DNA from: Gemmatales bacterium | GTDB taxonomy: Bacteria > Planctomycetota > Planctomycetia > Gemmatales > HRBIN36 | Direction of reading: 5' to 3' | Assembly: GCA_041640595.1 (NCBI GenBank) | Contig: JBEPZY010000002.1 | Coordinates: 1-38,431, forward strand | DNA: 38,431 bases | Part shown: piece after piece, positions 7,063 to 20,249 of the stretch | How positions within the stretch are numbered: position 1 is the stretch's first letter | Layout of the letters: each line of letters opens with the position of its first letter | Program-made: the position numbers and the translations under genes | The notes under the pieces: model-generated | Told to the model about the DNA's origin: nothing | Database searches by the model: none | What the model saw: only the letters and a program-made list of their open reading frames with translations

Positions 7063-8121
7063 ATGGCGCTATTTCTAGCGATTGAGACATCGTGCGATGA
7101 AACGGCAGCGGCCGTCTTTGACGACGCACTGCAGATTCGTGCCAACGTGGTGGCATCGCAAACCGATCTGCATGCCCGTTTCGGTGGCGTGGTGCCCGAA
7201 GTGGCAGCGCGAGCCCACCTGCAACGCTTGATGCCGGTCATTGATGAAGCACTGCGGCAAAGTGGCGTTCGTCTGCGCGAACTGGATGCCGTCGCCGTTA
7301 TGAACACGCCCGGTTTAGTCGGTTCGCTTCTGGTAGGTGTGAGTGCGGCCAAGATGCTGGCGGTGGCCCTGGAAAAACCGCTTCTGGCCGTCAACCACAT
7401 CGAGGCCCACGTGTACGCTTGCCGCATTGCCGCCGGACGAGACGTTTTCCCGGCCATCGGTCTGGTGGTCAGCGGCGGGCACACGGTGCTGTTTCATTGT
7501 CGCAGTGCTCTGGAGTTTGAACTGCTCGGCGCCACCCTCGACGATGCTGCCGGGGAAGCATTTGACAAAGCAGCGAGCATGCTCGGTCTGGGTTTTCCCG
7601 GTGGGCCGAAGGTCGAAAAGGAGGCGGCGGCAGGCAATCCCAGAGCGTTTCGCTTTCCGCGAGCTTTCCTGCACGAACCGCGCTTGGATTTCAGCTTCAG
7701 CGGTCTGAAGACGGCTTTGCTCTACACCATACGCGATCTCGGTTATCAGCCGGGCGGTGAAATACCCGCGTCAGTGCGAGCCGATCTGGCTGCCAGTTTT
7801 CAGCAGGCGGTGATTGATGTGCTCGTCGCCAAATGTGCTCAGGCAATGGAGCAGACCGGCCTGAACCGTTTGTGCGTCGGTGGGGGCGTCGCGGCTAACA
7901 AAACCTTGCGGCAGGCACTGCAGCAGATGTGTACAGCGCGCGGAGCCGAATTGTTCGTGCCACCAATGAGCCTGTGCACCGACAACGCGGCGATGGCAGC
8001 CATGGCCGTGGAACTGTACCGCCTCGGTCACTTCGCCCCCCTCGATCTCGACGCCATCCCCACCTACCGTCCCCGACGGCCTGTGAAATCAACCCCACTG
8101 GCCACCACAACCTCCACCTGA
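7063..8121 (+). CDS. tsaD: tRNA N6-threonylcarbamoyladenosine transferase TsaD (Kae1/YgjD)
   Basis: Motifs LAIETSCDETAAA, GGVVPEVAARAH, NHIEAH, VSGGHT, DDAAGEAFDK, FSFSGLKTA, GGVAAN, CTDNAAM. Confidence 0.97.
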   Translation: MALFLAIETSCDETAAAVFDDALQIRANVVASQTDLHARFGGVVPEVAARAHLQRLMPVIDEALRQSGVRLRELDAVAVMNTPGLVGSLLVGVSAAKMLAVALEKPLLAVNHIEAHVYACRIAAGRDVFPAIGLVVSGGHTVLFHCRSALEFELLGATLDDAAGEAFDKAASMLGLGFPGGPKVEKEAAAGNPRAFRFPRAFLHEPRLDFSFSGLKTALLYTIRDLGYQPGGEIPASVRADLAASFQQAVIDVLVAKCAQAMEQTGLNRLCVGGGVAANKTLRQALQQMCTARGAELFVPPMSLCTDNAAMAAMAVELYRLGHFAPLDLDAIPTYRPRRPVKSTPLATTTST

Positions 8122-8513
8122 TCCCCGCGCCGCTCGCTAACCAACCAGCCAATCTGCCGGAATACCATCTAAGGTGGAAACATCGGTCAGCACCTCTCAC
8201 CGGCCCCTCGCAAACCAACCATCCAGCCCGCCAGACGACTGAACTGGCCGGCCGCACATCCACCTGGGGCAATGGTCGCTTCGGATAGTTTTCACGACCG
8301 AATGAGCCCGGCGAGCATTGAAACTGCAGCCGCGCGTGCCTATCGTCAACTGTGCAGGACGGTTTCCGGGAACAGCATTTGCTCGCTGCAACTCCGCACC
8401 CTCGCGGACAGGCTATTCGAGAGATGCGACAAAACGGTAAGCGGATACCGCAAAGGCCAGCGTAACTGCGAGCAGTACCCGCAGCGCGAGCGAGTACCAA
8501 CTGGATAAACCCC

Positions 8514-9383
8514 GTGAAAAAGACAAGCAGACGGACACCTTTAGACGGTAAGACCTGATTGCGTTACTCAATCAGTGTCTGGGAGGACATTGAGAAAAGT
8601 CCCGAGGAGAAAGCATTACGCCATCCGGCTCTGTATCCGTCAGCGCTGGTGGAACGTTTACTGGATTGTTATGTATGGCAGCCGGGCATCGTGTTAGACC
8701 CCTTTCTTGGTTCCGGCTCCAGTTTGCTGGCAGCGCTGAAGAAGGGCCATAGCGGCGTGGGAGTGGAAATTGTTCCCGATTTTGCCCGTATGGCTTTGCA
8801 GCGATTAAAGGCCAGTGCTCATCCTTCGCTTTTCGGTGACGGCCAGGAACCTGTTATCCGTCTGGTAACCAGGGCCGAGCGGTTGAGCTTCCCGGTTGAT
8901 CGCCAAACGCTCATCGTGGTGCGAGACGATGCCCGCAGCCTGTCTGCTTACCTGGAAGAAGAAAGCGTTGATTTCCTGGTGACCTCGCCTCCCTACTGGG
9001 TAATCCATCGTCGTCCTCGCACTGCCGACGCCAAAAAGCCCCGACCATATTCCGATATCCCGCAGGATTTAGGCAACGTCGAGCGCTACGAGGATTTCCT
9101 GGAGCAACTGGGCAAGATTTTCGCAGTTGCTTACCGCTTGTTGAAGCCAGCCGCTTTCTGTGTGGTCAATGTCATGGACCTGCGCTACGGGGCGCGATTC
9201 ATCCCGTATCATGTGGACGTCTTGAACTTGCTGGTGAATCAAGGCTTCCAGCCACAGGACATCATCATCTGGAATCGGGCCCGGGAATACAACAACTTGC
9301 GCCCCCTCGGATATCCTCACAAGTTCATTGTCAACAAAGTGCACGAATACTTGCTGGTGTTCCGGAAACCGGAAAAGCAATGA
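8514..9383 (+). CDS. Amino-type (N4-C/N6-A) DNA methyltransferase; in-frame TGA at 8556-8558 (nonsense lesion, or true start at TTG 8559)
   Basis: Motifs HPALYP, SAM-binding VLDPFLGSGSS, catalytic VTSPPY, IIWN, HEYLLVFRK. GTG 8514 is in frame (VKKTSRRTPLDGKT*LRYSISVW). Confidence 0.85.
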
Positions 9384-10293
9384 ACCCGGCCATGCAGGAT
9401 TATCTGGACGAAGACGTGGCGTATTTACTCGGCCTGCTGGTAGGCAGAGGAAAGATAACGCAGGAACAAAGCCGCTGGATTGCCGTTATCGAATTTCCAT
9501 TCGTTCGGCCCCACCTGGAAGGTCTGGATCAATTCCACCATTTCCTGGCCAGCGTCGTTACGACTGTCCTTCCCCGATTGAAAGCGCTCCTGGGCGAGGG
9601 TGTTAATCTGTCTTCGGTTCCCGGAAAACAAGTTGCCGTTACCGTTGAATTGCCTGCGCGACATCTGGCGGTGCGAAATTTGCAAATGATTTTGCAAGGG
9701 GTCAAAGTCACAGTCAGTTTAACGTCCCCAAGGTCATAACCGAGTCCAACGGCGAAATCATCCGCGAGTTCGTTCGCGGTTTTGCCGATGTGGCCGGCAA
9801 CATTCGCAGGAGCAATAACGACCGCAACGGTTTCCATCGGGTCTATCTGGATGTGTTGAATGCCAACTGGAAGCTGCCCGTGCAGCTGTGCGGGCTTCTC
9901 CAGCAGAAGTTGGTAATACCCGTGCACGAAATTTTATGGGGTCATCCCAACCTTCGCGATCCTCAAGCCACTCGTGTTTCCCAGTCTCCTTTCCGCGAGC
10001 ATCAATTGCGCATCTACGCCCACGATTTTTTGCAGGTGGGCTTTTACATTAGCCACAAGCAGGAGGTGCTGGAGAGACTCGCAGCCGAGAACCAGCAGCG
10101 CATTCAGCAGGGCAAATCTGACCCGTCCAGTTTTTGCCCAGGCTCTCGAGGGTTGCGTCGAAAAAAAGACCATCCGCTGGAACACGACAAACGGATGCCC
10201 AGACTTATTCGTGGGCGACACTTTGACGCCTACTGGCAAATTTGCGCTGCCTGCGGTTGTCGCCTCGCCCGAAATGCGATGCGGCACTCATAG
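9380..10293 (+). pseudogene. Frameshifted double-LAGLIDADG-like protein with Cys-rich C-terminus
   Basis: ATGA overlap with the MTase stop. Frame A has AYLLGLLVGRGKI. A -1 shift near GGGG 9698-9701 continues GQSHSQFNVPKVITESNGEIIREFVRGFADVAGNI through FCP...CAACGC to the stop at 10293. Confidence 0.65.
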
Positions 10294-10343
10294 TGGTGAA
10301 AGCGGTTGGTACCGACGCTGCCGCGATAAAGGTGAGTAAGCAG

Positions 10344-10841
10344 ATGCGGGAACGAGAACTTTACCGTCCTGTTTGCGATTGGCTCGCCAGGTTTTTGCGG
10401 CAGAAATATCGTTCTGCTGCCGTTCGTGTGGAAGACACGTCGCGTTCCAGCGTAGCCGAATTCCTCCGTCGGCACGAGCTCACAAGGTATGTGCCTTACT
10501 GGGTAACGCTGGAAGTTCCTGCAGATGTGACCGGAGCCGCTGTGCTCACCGGCCACCCACATCGCAGTCTGTTACGGCTAGCTATCGTGGAAGTCAAGCT
10601 GAAGGTGATCAACTTGCGAGATTTGTCCCAGGCAATCGGCTACGCAAAAGTGGTTCAGCCACATTACGCATTCCTTGTCTCACCCAAAGGATGGACAGAG
10701 AATCTGCAACGGCTGATGCGGGATTATCAGCGTTCAGATGTACTTGAATATGGCCCGCAGCGATGGCTCGCGGTTGCGCGATGGGACCACGCTAGCGGCT
10801 GTGTGCGCACGGGCGAATTCCTGCTTCCAGGCATACCCTGA
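10344..10841 (+). CDS. Short putative PD-(D/E)XK nuclease-fold protein
   Basis: 165 aa. MRERELYRPVCDWL start, PADVTG (motif II), IVEVK (motif III), DLSQAIGY (QxxxY). Confidence 0.65.
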   Translation: MRERELYRPVCDWLARFLRQKYRSAAVRVEDTSRSSVAEFLRRHELTRYVPYWVTLEVPADVTGAAVLTGHPHRSLLRLAIVEVKLKVINLRDLSQAIGYAKVVQPHYAFLVSPKGWTENLQRLMRDYQRSDVLEYGPQRWLAVARWDHASGCVRTGEFLLPGIP

Positions 10842-10997
10842 TCGCTGCAACTGCTCTTCACCACCCACAGCGGACGTAATTGAGTTTGTCAACGCGCTCC
10901 GGCTGATGGCTGCAACTGATGTTGACCACACCGTTCGCAGACACGCCAGTCGGGGTCATTCCGACTCCTGATCGCTGCAACCGCTGTTGACCGCACC
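10838..10997. repeat. Three ~29-30-bp degenerate direct repeats at exact 65-bp period with unrelated ~36-bp spacers
   Basis: CTGATCGCTGCAACTGCTCTTCACCACCC (10838), CTGATGGCTGCAACTGATGTTGACCACAC (10903), CTGATCGCTGCAACCGCTGTTGACCGCAC (10968). Confidence 0.75.
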
Positions 10998-11032
10998 CAG
11001 GTACCGAATGGCATACTCAAATCGAACGCAAC

Positions 11033-11076
11033 AAAAAAAGCCGCAGAGCCGCGAGGGTGGCGCGGCTCCGGGCGGT
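11033..11076 (-). terminator. Intrinsic terminator of the Cys-rich protein gene
   Basis: The minus strand reads ACCGCCCGGAGCCGCG-CCACCCT-CGCGGCTCTGCGGC-TTTTTTT, about 50 nt after the stop at 11129. Confidence 0.7.
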
Positions 11077-11128
11077 CGTGCTGCGACAAGGGGGTCGCGG
11101 CAAGGAGGCTAGCTATTCAGCTACCGGC

Positions 11129-11983
11129 TTACTCCTTCTCTTTCGGCATCGGTTTAATCTGTTCCGGTGCCGGAGTCGCCGGAGCATAGGCGGCGGTATG
11201 GCAGCAATCCTGACGGCAAGCGAGGCTGCTCAGGGCGCCTTTCAGCCGGCAGTGCAGGCGTTCCAGGAGGCTCGGCTCTTCGCACACCGGCACGCACACT
11301 TTCACGCGCTTGCACACTTTCACGGTCTTTTCCACCGGCACCTTCTCGCAGACGGTCACCGGCACCTTCTTGACCACTTCCTCTTTGACCATGCGGCAGG
11401 TGGTCACCGGGATTTTCTTCACGACTTCTTCCTGCACCATGCGGCAGACTTTCACGGTGCGGATTTCTTCCTTGGGCACGCAGACTTTCTTGCAGACGAT
11501 GCGGTCGGGTTCTTTCACCAGCTGCCGTTCAAAGTGGCCGAAGCGATAGTGCGTGCAGCCGGTGCAGGGGTCCACGTAGCAACCGCCAGGCACCCAGACC
11601 AGTTTGCAGCGTTCCTTGCCGGGCACGCATTCTTGGACGGTTTTCCATTCGTGGGTGCAGACCTTGATCTGCTTCTCTTCCCACACGGGCTTGCAGACGA
11701 CTTGCTTGCACTCGATCTCCTTGGTTTCATAGACGGGTTTGCAGACGACCTCCTTGACCTCCTTCATGACCGTCTTGGTGACCGTCTCGTAGCAGGTGAC
11801 CTTTTTCTCTTCGACTACGGTCTGATAGCAGGTCTTGTAGCGGATGCGTGGCTGAGCGCAGTGGTCGGGACATGCGCTCGGACAGCCACCGCTGGCTCCA
11901 CAGAATCCGGTCGCACTGACTGGCAAAGCACCCCACAGGGCAGCCAGTCCTCCCAGCAGACTCGCAAGCACCATTCGCCTCAT
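11129..11983 (-). CDS. Secreted Cys/Val/Lys-rich repeat protein (Planctomycete YTV-like envelope protein)
   Basis: ATG 11983 with an AAAAGGAG RBS and signal peptide MRRMVLASLLGGLAALWGALPVSA. Repeats include VCKPVYETKEIEC and EEVVKKVPVTVC. Confidence 0.75.
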   Translation of the reverse strand: MRRMVLASLLGGLAALWGALPVSATGFCGASGGCPSACPDHCAQPRIRYKTCYQTVVEEKKVTCYETVTKTVMKEVKEVVCKPVYETKEIECKQVVCKPVWEEKQIKVCTHEWKTVQECVPGKERCKLVWVPGGCYVDPCTGCTHYRFGHFERQLVKEPDRIVCKKVCVPKEEIRTVKVCRMVQEEVVKKIPVTTCRMVKEEVVKKVPVTVCEKVPVEKTVKVCKRVKVCVPVCEEPSLLERLHCRLKGALSSLACRQDCCHTAAYAPATPAPEQIKPMPKEKE

Positions 11984-12296
11984 CGCAGGACTCCTTTTGA
12001 TAGGTTGACCTTGCTTCCCCAGCCATTTGCCGGTCCTTCCGCAACCGGCGTGTTCCTTTTTGGCTGGCCAATGTAATTTTGAGAGATTGCAGAAAAAAGG
12101 CAAACTGCGGCAGCGAAATTTTCCAGCGAAATTGAGAAAGGCCTGCGCTATATTCGGAATTTTCGTCACGGCCGGAAACTCGTCCTGGCTTGCCGGGTCG
12201 GGAACGACCGCTAGAATTGGTCTCGGAAGCATGCCCGCGAAGCTGGACGCTCCCGGCCGAAGGGCATAATCCCGGTTGCGATCGGAAGGGCGTGCG

Positions 12297-17215: not shown

Positions 17216-17513
17216 AGGGAAGGAACATGGCGCATCGTGCGATGTCGCCTGCCGACCAACAGCCGGAGGCCGAGGCTTGTTAGAAAAAAGGAAGGAACGT
17301 GGGGCATCGTGCGATGCCGCTTGCCGACCAACAGGCTGCGCTGGCAGCGTCGGAACACAGCAGCGCAAAGCCCTCTCCAGCAGCAGGGATCTCCTCAACC
17401 GCGCTGCGCTGGCAGCGTCGGAATACGGCAGCGGGTGCCACTTGCCTGGATAACCGCCCGGCCCCATAATGTCAGCAACTGGGCAACTTTCGTTACCACC
17501 AGGGGGAAATGTC

Positions 17514-20249
17514 ATGCGTCTAACGGGCAGCACTTTCTGGTTGGGGAGCTGTGGGGTTACTTTAGCGCTGCTGGCGACCTGCCTGGCACAGGAACCCCGC
17601 GATGCCGACAACATCATCCCGCTCACCTCTTCGATCGAGGAGTACCGCAACGCTCAAGTTTCCCTGGGCCAGGGGCAGAATGTCCAGGTGCACATTCCGT
17701 ATTGCCTGAGCGGAAGCAGTGCGCTCATTGTGTTTCCGGTCTGGTTGGTCGGTGAACAGGTGCACATCTGGGACGGAACCGACTGGAAATTACTGAATCC
17801 CCACGACGAGGTTCCGCCGCTGATAAGCGGTCAGCCGGTGCGATTGCGCTTCTTTCTGCGCAATTTGCTCAGTTCGGAGGAGGGTCGCCGAGCCGTTTAT
17901 GACTTGATCCGCAAACAGGTTGCCGAGCTGCGTGGCCTGAAGGGTGACCAACTTCGTCTGTACGAACCTCGGCTCGATAAGGAGCGGTTTCGTATGACTG
18001 TGTTCGTACCTCGGAGTGGCGAACGTCCCGACCCGCCGGTTTCGTTACCGGTGCGTCTGTCGGAGACGCTTTTCAGCGAACCAGACGGCCAGTTTGTGGA
18101 AGTGCCGCTGGACAGCGCCAGTCTTTTAGAATTGCGGCAGCAAATGTCCGGACAACCACTGCGGCTGATGGACTTGCGCCTGCGCATCCAGGGGCCTTTT
18201 CAGTCTCGCATGGAACAACTGCAATTGCTGGGGTCAGTAAAGTTCGTACAAACTCGGCTCGCTGATTTGCAGAATCAACTGCGGCCAAAGACGATCCCCA
18301 ATGCCCCGTCCCCTAGCTTGCTGATAGTTCCGCCGGTAGCCACTGGGGGGCATGCCCAGCAACAATTCGAGACGCGTGACTTGCTCGTACAGACGCTGGA
18401 AGTGCAGATTCTCACCCGCCAGGATTTCCACGACCGCGCTACCGTCAATTACCTGATCCAGCGCCTGCTCGACCATGCCCTGACCCAAGCGAAACTCAGT
18501 GACGAACAGGATAACAAAGTGGTAACCGTGCTCTTGAGCCAGCAAGCGGCGCTGACGGCTACCGTGGGAGAATTGCGCAAGATTTCGTTGAAAGACCGAA
18601 AGGAACGGGAAGCGGTTCTCAATACCCTTCTGGACAACTGGGAGGCTGAGCAAAGCGGCAAGCGCAGAGCGGGCCAGGTCAACTTACAGGCTGAATATCG
18701 TACACTGGGTATCGGTTTCAGGGGAGCCTTTGATGGAGCCGCAGAGGAAAGCGCGCAGCAAGCCAGAGCGCAATGGCGTAAGGAGCAAATGGAAACTCTC
18801 CACAGGTGTCTGGATGACCTGAGTAACCATTTCGAAGGGCGATTACCGACCTTGACTGGGATCAGCCTCGAACAGAAAAATCTGCTGGACGTCGGGAGAA
18901 ACCTCGAGGCGGAAATCAAGCAGAGCAAGTTCACCGTCGGTTGGGCGGAATATCGCTGGCCGGGTTTGTCTCCCAGTTTTTCACCCGGCGAAGTCCTTTT
19001 GAAAATCCGAAAGGAAGCCCAGGAGCTTTCGCTTCGCCAGCAGCAACTCGAGCAGGCCCGCAAAGACCTGGAAGAAACACTCGGCAAAGCCCAAGGTCTG
19101 AACAAGGAGCTGGGCGAAACGCGTGAAGAGCTCGACCGTATCGCCGCCAAACTGCGCCAGCTGGACAAAGAACTCGACCAGAACGACCTCCGTTCGCTGC
19201 GGAAGGAACTGGCTCAGCATCAGCGCGAACTTGGCCGCATCGCCGAAAACATAGGTCAAATGGAAAAGCAACTAGCCGGCCTGGATTCCCTGCGGAAGGA
19301 ACTGGGCGGATGCCGTGACCTGCTCAATAGCTTGTCAGGCAGGCTGGCCCGCCTTGAGGCGCGCAAACTTGATGTTGAATCAGCCGTGCTGTCAGTCGCG
19401 GTGACGCCCGATGGCCAATACGTCGTTTCGGGAAGTCATGACAAAACGGTGCGTTTATGGGAGCTGGCGACGGGGAAAGAAGTGCGGCGGTTCACGGGGC
19501 ACTCGGATTACGTCAATAGCGTCGCGGTGACACCCGATGGCAAGTACGTTGTTTCGGGAAGCGCGGACAAGACGGTGCGTTTGTGGGGGCTGGCGACGGG
19601 GAAAGAAGTGCGGCGGTTCACGGGGCACGAGGATTGGGTCAGGAGCGTCGCGGTGACGCCCGATGGCCAATACGTCGTTTCGGGAAGTGATGACGAAACG
19701 GTGCGTTTGTGGGGGCTGGCGAGGGGGAAAGAAGTGCGGCGGTTCACGGGGCACGAGGATTGGGTCTTGAGCGTCGCGGTGACGCCCGATGGCCAATACG
19801 TCGTTTCGGGAAGCGTGGACAAAACGGTGCGGGTGTGGGAGCTGGCGACGGGGAAGGAAGTGCGGCGGTTCACGGGGCACGAGGATTGGGTCTGCAGCGT
19901 CGCGGTGACGCCCGATGGCAAATACGTCGTTTCGGGAAGCGACGACAACACGGTGCGTTTGTGGGAGCTGGCGACAGGGCAAGAATTGCGGCGGTTCACG
20001 GGGCACGCTGGTTCTGTCTGGAGCGTCGCGGTGACGCCCGATGGCAAATACGTCGTTTCGGGAAGCGGGGACAAAACGGTGCGTTTGTGGGGGCTGGCGA
20101 GGGGGAAAGAAGTGCGGCGGTTCCCGGGGCACGAGGGTACGGTCTGGAGTGTCGCGGTGACGCCCGATGGCAAATATGTCGTTTCGGGAAGCCAGGACAA
20201 CACGGTACGCTTGTGGTACATCGGCGATTTGTTGACGCCGGGCAAGTAG
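17514..20249 (+). CDS. Signal-peptide protein with large N-terminal domain, coiled coil and seven near-identical WD40 repeats
   Basis: ATG 17514 with an AGGGGGA RBS and hydrophobic leader. A heptad-rich region precedes 7 x 42-aa SVAVTPDGxYVVSGSxDxTVRLW...EVRRFTGH repeats (126-bp period). Confidence 0.9.
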   Translation: MRLTGSTFWLGSCGVTLALLATCLAQEPRDADNIIPLTSSIEEYRNAQVSLGQGQNVQVHIPYCLSGSSALIVFPVWLVGEQVHIWDGTDWKLLNPHDEVPPLISGQPVRLRFFLRNLLSSEEGRRAVYDLIRKQVAELRGLKGDQLRLYEPRLDKERFRMTVFVPRSGERPDPPVSLPVRLSETLFSEPDGQFVEVPLDSASLLELRQQMSGQPLRLMDLRLRIQGPFQSRMEQLQLLGSVKFVQTRLADLQNQLRPKTIPNAPSPSLLIVPPVATGGHAQQQFETRDLLVQTLEVQILTRQDFHDRATVNYLIQRLLDHALTQAKLSDEQDNKVVTVLLSQQAALTATVGELRKISLKDRKEREAVLNTLLDNWEAEQSGKRRAGQVNLQAEYRTLGIGFRGAFDGAAEESAQQARAQWRKEQMETLHRCLDDLSNHFEGRLPTLTGISLEQKNLLDVGRNLEAEIKQSKFTVGWAEYRWPGLSPSFSPGEVLLKIRKEAQELSLRQQQLEQARKDLEETLGKAQGLNKELGETREELDRIAAKLRQLDKELDQNDLRSLRKELAQHQRELGRIAENIGQMEKQLAGLDSLRKELGGCRDLLNSLSGRLARLEARKLDVESAVLSVAVTPDGQYVVSGSHDKTVRLWELATGKEVRRFTGHSDYVNSVAVTPDGKYVVSGSADKTVRLWGLATGKEVRRFTGHEDWVRSVAVTPDGQYVVSGSDDETVRLWGLARGKEVRRFTGHEDWVLSVAVTPDGQYVVSGSVDKTVRVWELATGKEVRRFTGHEDWVCSVAVTPDGKYVVSGSDDNTVRLWELATGQELRRFTGHAGSVWSVAVTPDGKYVVSGSGDKTVRLWGLARGKEVRRFPGHEGTVWSVAVTPDGKYVVSGSQDNTVRLWYIGDLLTPGK

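Follow-up and report, generated by a model that had tools for sequence, protein, structure and literature searches.

Restriction endonucleases are usually grouped under a small number of catalytic folds; the parts with which they recognise DNA are idiosyncratic. Here we describe a cassette of three co-oriented genes at positions 8514-10841 on the forward strand of a 38,431-nt stretch of contig JBEPZY010000002.1 from a Gemmatales bacterium (the whole stretch that was analysed, hereafter the window). Read from the sequence, it encodes a methyltransferase (gene 1), then a LAGLIDADG-fold protein (gene 2), then a nuclease (gene 3). Among the closest described systems are the heterodimeric Type IIS/IIT restriction enzymes BtsI, BsrDI and BspD6I, for which excerpts of Xu et al. 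2007 (PMC1950550) report a large subunit that carries recognition and a small PD-(D/E)XK subunit (~18-25 kDa) without DNA binding or activity of its own. One or two amino-methyltransferases lie alongside, and the BtsI subunits (37.6 and 18.6 kDa) are near genes 2 and 3 in size; the small subunit of BspD6I (2p14) is also a fold match of gene 3 (Z 6.5). In the same excerpts, the large subunits of BtsI and BsrDI are PD-(D/E)XK-type nickases with their own catalytic site, whereas gene 2, with its LAGLIDADG fold, carries no known catalytic motif, a difference drawn from description and not from sequence.

The Type IIS enzymes FokI and PaqCI tether a recognition module to a non-specific PD-(D/E)XK domain, which is also the layout of natural gene 2-gene 3 fusions of 538-557 aa discussed below; in our case, however, the recognition module would be a dead LAGLIDADG fold, and the window carries two separate proteins. 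Double-motif LAGLIDADG homing endonucleases (PI-PfuI, I-DmoI, I-Tsp061I, PI-SceI) share with gene 2 the two-domain fold and the two LAGLIDADG-like helices. Unlike them, gene 2 has no catalytic acid at either motif, lies outside introns and inteins and always beside methyltransferase and PD-(D/E)XK genes, and contains extra conserved WGHPNLRD/REHQ segments as well as a C-terminal Cys-rich extension. WhiA, in which a degenerate LAGLIDADG domain is followed by a C-terminal helix-turn-helix domain, likewise combines the fold with missing catalytic residues (Z 13.5), but gene 2 ends in the Cys-rich extension, has no helix-turn-helix detectable with Pfam, occupies another genomic context and is fused to a nuclease in some lineages. 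Of the literature searched, the nearest item is the engineered I-SceI-FokI chimera, presented in excerpts of its report (PMC2685105) as a man-made type IIS restriction endonuclease with a long recognition sequence, in which an inactivated or binding-only LAGLIDADG scaffold gives specificity and an unrelated nuclease domain cuts; the family described here differs in being natural, linked to methyltransferases and present in many phyla. Judging from sequence comparisons and structure models, the cassette is probably a Type II-like restriction-modification system whose nuclease has two parts: a dead LAGLIDADG module that reads the DNA and a PD-(D/E)XK module that cuts it. The features of the window copy, with the evidence for each in brackets, are the following.

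8514-9383, forward strand: gene 1, predicted circularly permuted beta-like N6/N4 DNA amino-methyltransferase, a pseudogene in this strain (PF01555 and 2zie matches)
8556-8558, forward strand: in-frame TGA in place of a conserved gene 1 Trp codon, a nonsense lesion (homologue alignment, sister contigs)
9380-9383, forward strand: ATGA overlap of the gene 1 stop and the gene 2 start (read from sequence)
9380-10293, forward strand: gene 2, frameshifted in this strain, for a LAGLIDADG-fold protein of two domains that lacks the catalytic acids and has a C-terminal Cys cluster (open reading frames, model, fold matches)
9698-9701, forward strand: 1-nt deletion that shifts the gene 2 frame; the lost C would follow 9700, within GGGG (sister contigs)
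10344-10841, forward strand: gene 3, predicted 165-aa stand-alone PD-(D/E)XK nuclease, intact (invariant residues, fold matches)

An earlier, sequence-only reading of this DNA had noted the three co-oriented genes with the ATGA overlap of the first two and, once the frame of gene 2 was repaired, two LAGLIDADG-like helices and a Cys cluster in its product. The sequence bears this out. Gene 2 runs from ATG 9380 to TAA 9739 and is continued in the -1 frame from 9691 to TAG 10293; it contains the motifs AYLLGLLVGRG and FVRGFADVAG and the C-terminal Cys cluster. An intact allele in the databases (P0001, 304 aa) is 96% identical to the gene 2 of the window. We modelled the family with AlphaFold2 on 95 sequences, with P0001 as the first. 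The model (predicted local distance difference test, pLDDT, 93.8) consists of two alpha-beta-beta-alpha-beta-beta-alpha domains and a C-terminal extension, and the LAGLIDADG fold was upheld by structure searches: Foldseek returned LAGLIDADG enzymes, maturases and WhiA with expectation values (E) from 5e-6, and the best VIA-align matches were the Tli VMA intein endonuclease (Z 14.9), PI-PfuI (14.8), I-Tsp061I (14.5) and I-DmoI (~13). LAGLIDADG homing endonucleases as a group aligned over 158-194 residues (Z 14.9-12.7, root mean square deviation 2.6-4.0), and WhiA matched with Z 13.5 over 188 residues (8dy9_I) and Z 11.8 (3hyi).

The same reading had pointed out that R and A stand where LAGLIDADG enzymes carry a catalytic D or E, and this holds across the family. 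Position 23 is R in 168, K in 16, N in 6, G in 5, H in 3 and S in 1 of 199 members, and position 139 is A in 161, S in 27, T in 19, C in 13, G in 7, I in 6, V in 5 and N in 1 of 239; D or E occurs in none of them. We take R23 and A139 to be the canonical catalytic positions from the motif register, not from structural superposition. By this alignment, the canonical metal-binding acids appear to be missing throughout the family. Four cysteines are conserved, namely C171 (209/241 proteins), C253 (192/226), C289 (197/220) and C294 (210/218); position 171 is D in 15 proteins and position 289 is N in 15 proteins, and a joint loss of C171 and C289 would suggest that they form one metal site.

Neither half of gene 2, nor gene 3, had a significant match in Pfam, NCBIfam, PADLOC (a look-up that the sequence-only reading had proposed) or PHROGs. 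Pfam matched neither half of gene 2 even at E up to 1, hence no helix-turn-helix domain, and comparison of the gene 2 and gene 3 profiles with the sequences of solved structures gave matches at chance level only (DOCK10, E 0.015; a designed repeat protein). The top feature matches in the Protein Atlas, which serve as leads only, were LAGLIDADG_3 clusters (up to 0.88) and a 460-aa Bacillota cluster (0.91).

Gene 3 extends from ATG 10344 to TGA 10841. An alternative GTG start at 10293 overlaps the gene 2 stop and gives 182 aa, corresponding to P0121. The earlier description of a 165-aa protein with PD...EVK...QxxxY and little room for a recognition domain proved accurate: D61 (in ADVTG), E83 and K85 (in E83-V-K85), Q96 and Y100 (in Q96xxxY100) are invariant in 64 homologues. 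The gene 3 model is of moderate quality (pLDDT 74.9). Its structural matches are nuclease domains of PD-(D/E)XK restriction and effector proteins: Foldseek matched MspJI (E 2.4e-4), and VIA gave Z 8.1 for both PaqCI and AF1548, 7.7 for NucS, 7.3 for MspJI, 7.2 for AspBHI and 6.3 for FokI, in addition to the BspD6I small subunit mentioned above, where a Z of ~8 is barely over the background stated for the tool. On the model and these residues, gene 3 is predicted to be a PD-(D/E)XK nuclease with little beyond the catalytic core and no recognition domain of its own. A complex prediction of gene 2 (A3) with gene 3 (A4), run without controls, scored 0.00 against a mark of 0.32, which counts neither for nor against an interaction.

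We scanned one genome per species with tblastn, confirmed gene 2 relatives in 134 stretches and kept 80 loci, which belong to Armatimonadota, Chloroflexota, Acidobacteriota, Bacteroidota, Poribacteria, Bathyarchaeia, Nitrososphaeria, Asgard archaea and others. Where the sequence extends at least 700 nt upstream of gene 2 (71 loci), the gene directly before it is the permuted methyltransferase in 69; the remaining two (Snuella, Polaribacter) have an EcoRI-like adenine methylase and a C5 cytosine methylase as two genes. Where it extends at least 450 nt downstream (76 loci), gene 3 follows gene 2 in 75, and in the one locus without gene 3 (L080) gene 2 is truncated and the methyltransferase is split. 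The linkage of gene 2 homologues to both partners, which the sequence-only reading had put up for survey, is conserved, and the cassette is not a chance arrangement, because its gene order is repeated in 80 loci of other species. Gene ends within the cassette often overlap. Clustering of the flanking open reading frames of the kept loci revealed no fourth recurrent family, the next real one being found in 7 loci. The flanks vary from locus to locus, which rules out a homing-site element. A variant in Flavobacteria has a Dam-like/permuted fusion methyltransferase.

More distant gene 2 homologues (27-29% identity) occur on a 6.5-kb Lactiplantibacillus plasmid and in two gut phages. There, they lie between a 700-aa EcoRI-like and C5 fusion methyltransferase and a protein of 165-168 aa, and the 168-aa protein of the plasmid matches the gene 3 profile with a probability of 99.8%. 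The neighbours on the plasmid and phages include a toxin-antitoxin gene, an excisionase and GmrSD. When 1.84 billion cluster representatives (50% clusters) were searched exhaustively with the profile, we found 452 members of the gene 2 family at E up to 0.001, from many bacterial and archaeal phyla, plasmids and phages; 150 of these were listed. The context is that of a Type II system, in which a methyltransferase gene adjoins a nuclease gene and the distribution is sporadic and mobile.

Fusions of genes 2 and 3 came to light in a gene 3 profile search of longer proteins (P0143, 542 aa; P0144, 538 aa). Residues 2-339 of P0143 match the gene 2 profile (probability 100%, E 2.4e-41) and residues 397-538 the gene 3 profile (probability 99.7%, E 3.8e-26). 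Fused proteins of 538-557 aa make up 22 of the 150 listed cluster representatives, and a scan of 152 family proteins found a gene 3 domain in 29, of which 24 are full-length fusions. Because such natural fusions exist, genes 2 and 3 most probably act together. Of 366 confirmed metagenome loci with the fused form, 80 were kept. In 62 of these, the permuted methyltransferase lies downstream on the opposite strand (convergent). Many of the 80 contain a second methyltransferase from another family, of the D12 (27 loci), gamma-class N6_Mtase/Eco57I/TaqI_C (20) or MT-A70 (10) type; recombinases or integrases are found nearby. Since the nuclease module is constantly linked to DNA methyltransferases, which are exchanged between families, and occurs on plasmids, phages and islands, the data point to a restriction gene.

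The fused and longer forms showed further peculiarities. Fused proteins (P0143, P0144, alignment A5) have a zinc-ribbon-like CxxC...CxxC insertion in the first LAGLIDADG domain, with C42, C45, C63 and C66 conserved, and C171 and C289 of the split form are lost in many of them. A dozen metagenome loci (L097-L100, L102, L104, L127, L129-L131, L134 and L135) match the 540-aa fused protein over ~2.05 kb and not 1.6 kb, which implies either an insertion of ~460 nt or a split gene. In seven proteins of 905-1299 aa (P0188, P0189, P0191, P0192, P0222, P0273 and P0283), the gene 2 domain is C-terminal, and the 590-1010 residues before it contain no Pfam family and no Pfam methyltransferase domain; they appear to represent a further architecture of the same putative DNA-reading module.

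According to the bipartite model, gene 2, a homing-endonuclease (LAGLIDADG) scaffold lacking both metal-binding acids, would recognise the DNA, and gene 3 would be brought to it by gene 2 and cut it with D61/E83/K85. Gene 1 alone would methylate the host sites and in this way block binding or cutting. In other lineages, both restriction parts reside in one polypeptide and the methyltransferase partner is swapped. The role of the cassette would be defence. The monomeric asymmetric scaffold and the frequent pairs of unlike methyltransferases suggest that the recognition site is asymmetric, as in Type IIS systems, and possibly long. In the full-text literature that we searched, no natural restriction enzyme with a LAGLIDADG-fold subunit is described, although REBASE lay outside the scope of this search and a characterised relative may therefore exist; excerpts of the BsaXI paper mention LAGLIDADG solely to illustrate two-site nucleases.

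Several points weigh against this assignment. LAGLIDADG saddles mostly read long sites, a poor fit to phage defence. Domain 2 of gene 2 contains near-invariant polar residues, H189 (237/243), E207 (225/242), H208 (227/241) and R154 (226/239); instead of reading DNA, these could form a new active site, bind a metal or contact another protein. The variable strands of gene 2 are those of domain 1, so that more than one surface could be the one that reads DNA, and part of the saddle might be hidden under the C-terminal Cys-rich extension.

These residues lie at the centre of an alternative that we consider unlikely: gene 2 would cut or nick DNA itself, at a non-canonical site of invariant domain-2 residues, and gene 3 would cut the other strand, as in BtsI and BsrDI. 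In addition to the four residues, the much stronger conservation of domain 2 compared to domain 1 (mean top-residue frequency 0.65-0.85 versus 0.28-0.63) speaks for such a site, and there is a precedent in BtsI (A 18.6 kDa, B 37.6 kDa) and BsrDI, the large subunits of which are nickases in a pair of similar sizes according to the excerpts of PMC1950550. Against it, both canonical LAGLIDADG acids are missing in every member, none of the four domain and family databases named above found a known nuclease motif in gene 2, and D158 would be a poor catalytic acid, being replaced by Q in 41 and by E in 40 of 240 proteins. The conserved His and Cys residues may just bind a structural metal.

A second alternative concerns the methyltransferase. 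Gene 1 starts at GTG 8514 or TTG 8559, stops at TGA 9383 and carries the motifs TSPPYW and FLGSGSS. The earlier assignment as an SPPY-type amino-methyltransferase is well founded: the match to PF01555 reaches 95.4 bits (cutoff 26.7) and comes in two swapped stretches, with residues 7-79 corresponding to its end (profile positions 143-219) and the SPPY half coming after. Similarly, residues 105-271 match residues 13-176 of the Thermus methylase 2zie and residues 3-84 match its residues 200-278 (E 1e-28). Motif I (FLGSGSS) thereby precedes motif IV (SPPY), the reverse of the beta-class N6/N4 order. Because the PF01555 and 2zie matches both come as two swapped stretches, gene 1 is a circular permutation of a beta-class amino-methyltransferase, and it has no discrete recognition domain. 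Its homologues start further upstream, with a conserved LDGKTW. By description, it is similar to the small 'class E' methyltransferases such as M1.BcnI, for which excerpts of a preprint (bioRxiv 10.1101/2023.12.13.571470) give a beta-like profile, an S-adenosylmethionine motif preceding the catalytic motif and no large recognition domain.

The sequence-only reading had proposed that the LAGLIDADG protein could be a specificity subunit for both enzymes. On such a model, the small methyltransferase would need gene 2 to find its site, much as HsdM and HsdR depend on HsdS in Type I systems. The ATGA overlap, which couples genes 1 and 2 in translation, would agree with this, as would the absence of a discrete recognition domain between or after the two methyltransferase halves and the position of the permuted methyltransferase as by far the commonest partner (69/71 and 62/80 loci). 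A permuted homologue from Latescibacterota (L071, 2735-3964) has gained a C-terminal helix-hairpin-helix domain (HHH_3), as though DNA binding were limiting, and one protein, P0165 (353 aa), joins a methyltransferase fragment to the C-terminal half of gene 2. However, class E enzymes such as M1.BcnI are described in the excerpts of the same preprint as reading DNA through their own surface loops. Genes 2 and 3 also pair with EcoRI-like, C5, D12, gamma (TaqI_C) and MT-A70 methyltransferases that have recognition parts of their own, and the permuted methyltransferase is on the opposite strand in the fused-form loci. Moreover, P0165 is the only methyltransferase-profile match among the 152 family proteins, compared to 29 with a gene 3 domain, and it may be an artefact of a gene call that reads across a frameshift; none of the seven long proteins has a Pfam methyltransferase domain. 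We therefore regard a shared specificity subunit as improbable. The three-component, methyltransferase-linked cassette that it proposed is upheld; the sharing of the LAGLIDADG subunit with the methyltransferase is not supported.

That gene 2 is a WhiA-like transcription regulator, i.e. a large controller protein, beside a self-sufficient restriction enzyme encoded by gene 3 is highly improbable: WhiA, in which the LAGLIDADG fold has been retained for DNA binding, is indeed among the top structural matches (8dy9_I, 3hyi), but fusion to gene 3 in 22 of the 150 listed representatives would be unexpected of a regulator, no helix-turn-helix was found and Pfam matched neither half of gene 2, the 165 aa of gene 3 are little more than a catalytic core, and a gene 3 that cut alone would presumably be lethal beside the broken methyltransferase of the window, where it is intact.

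The window copy had been taken to be a single frameshift away from an intact cassette, but we identified a second lesion. The TGA at 8556-8558 in gene 1 replaces the Trp of LDGKTW that is present in 14/14 aligned homologues. We aligned Logan contigs from four public runs (X1, X3, X5, X8) to positions 8400-10900; X3 and X5 are DNA libraries and X8 is an RNA library, these three stemming from three studies, and the RNA runs X16-X20, which contributed small shares only, were left out. The X1 contigs equal the window sequence exactly, with A at 8558, and X1 may be the source of the window DNA and is not independent. In contrast, the contigs of X3, X5 and X8 differ from the window by ~1% and have G at 8558 (TGG) and an extra C behind 9700, which restores the gene 2 frame to ...LQGRQSHSQF..., exactly as in P0001. 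The comparison indicates that the nonsense codon in gene 1 and the 1-nt deletion in gene 2 have left the window copy dead, and that intact alleles are kept in sister hot-spring populations. Reading of TGA as Trp is ruled out, since genes 1 and 3 also end in TGA, which is thus a stop in this genome. A programmed frameshift in gene 2 is likewise ruled out, as the sister contigs just have one C more.

The pattern of decay, with the methyltransferase and gene 2 broken and gene 3 intact, fits a restriction-modification system, and an intact gene 3 beside broken genes 1 and 2 would fit a nuclease that is harmless without gene 2. Decayed copies exist elsewhere (L080, L014, L051, L076 and L053). L053 (3090-3938), from a Dehalococcoidia genome, has an insertion sequence (IS) element, with an IS4/5-family transposase gene between the methyltransferase and gene 2. 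Among 40 relatives of the window genome, two of three genomes of the same genus (g1) were positive, compared to 0/11 from other genera of the family and 0/26 from the sister family. These two, G001 (L083, 309-2473) and G003 (L084), carry a divergent, partly decayed trio with a methyltransferase of 47% identity and a shorter gene 2 that is devoid of the WGHPN and Cys-rich parts. Gene 2 of G001 is split between its two domains, again by a shift into the -1 frame; G003 retains no more of gene 2 than the N-terminal half and has lost gene 3.

Within the window, the cassette has a guanine-cytosine content of 52-56%, compared to 59-62% in its flanks, in keeping with a mobile element. Its neighbours are ordinary chromosomal genes, namely tsaD upstream (7063-8121), a YTV-repeat protein gene (11129-12232, reverse strand) and a gene for a 926-aa WD40 protein (17469-20249, forward strand), and the surroundings are not a defence island. 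A scan of positions 8000-11200 for promoters and terminators found sites no more numerous than in shuffles. A motif of ~34 nt containing TSGCTGCAACYS occurs in four copies in the window, compared to 0.03 expected in shuffles, all of them flanking the cassette (8378-8411; 10837-11000): one lies ~130 nt upstream of gene 1 and three just downstream of gene 3 with a spacing of 65 nt. The motif is not a genome-wide repeat and is absent at the loci of the other cassettes; possible explanations are an operator, an insertion scar or a degenerate mini-array. The metatranscriptome library X8 contains one contig of 2422 nt of the intact allele that covers 8638-10900 and parts of all three genes, a weak hint of co-transcription, as DNA can contaminate such libraries.

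The window copy itself, as a dead remnant, is chiefly a record of how such systems decay. Intact cassettes are carried by cultured strains (Snuella sedimenti, Bizionia sediminis, Winogradskyella epiphytica and a Lactiplantibacillus plantarum plasmid), which makes the restriction question directly testable. Beyond the individual cassette, we lean towards the view that the homing-endonuclease scaffold has been repeatedly domesticated as a DNA-reading module of restriction systems, with a dead LAGLIDADG protein tethered to or partnered with a generic PD-(D/E)XK cutter and interchangeable methyltransferases protecting the host. If this is true, the family would represent a structural class of restriction enzyme that is absent from the known folds and a natural counterpart of the engineered meganuclease-nuclease chimeras. 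DNA assembly and genome engineering might also draw on it for natural modular enzymes whose sites are asymmetric or long. Overall, so widespread a family would link the two great classes of site-specific nucleases and would illustrate a route of domestication by which selfish homing enzymes enter defence.

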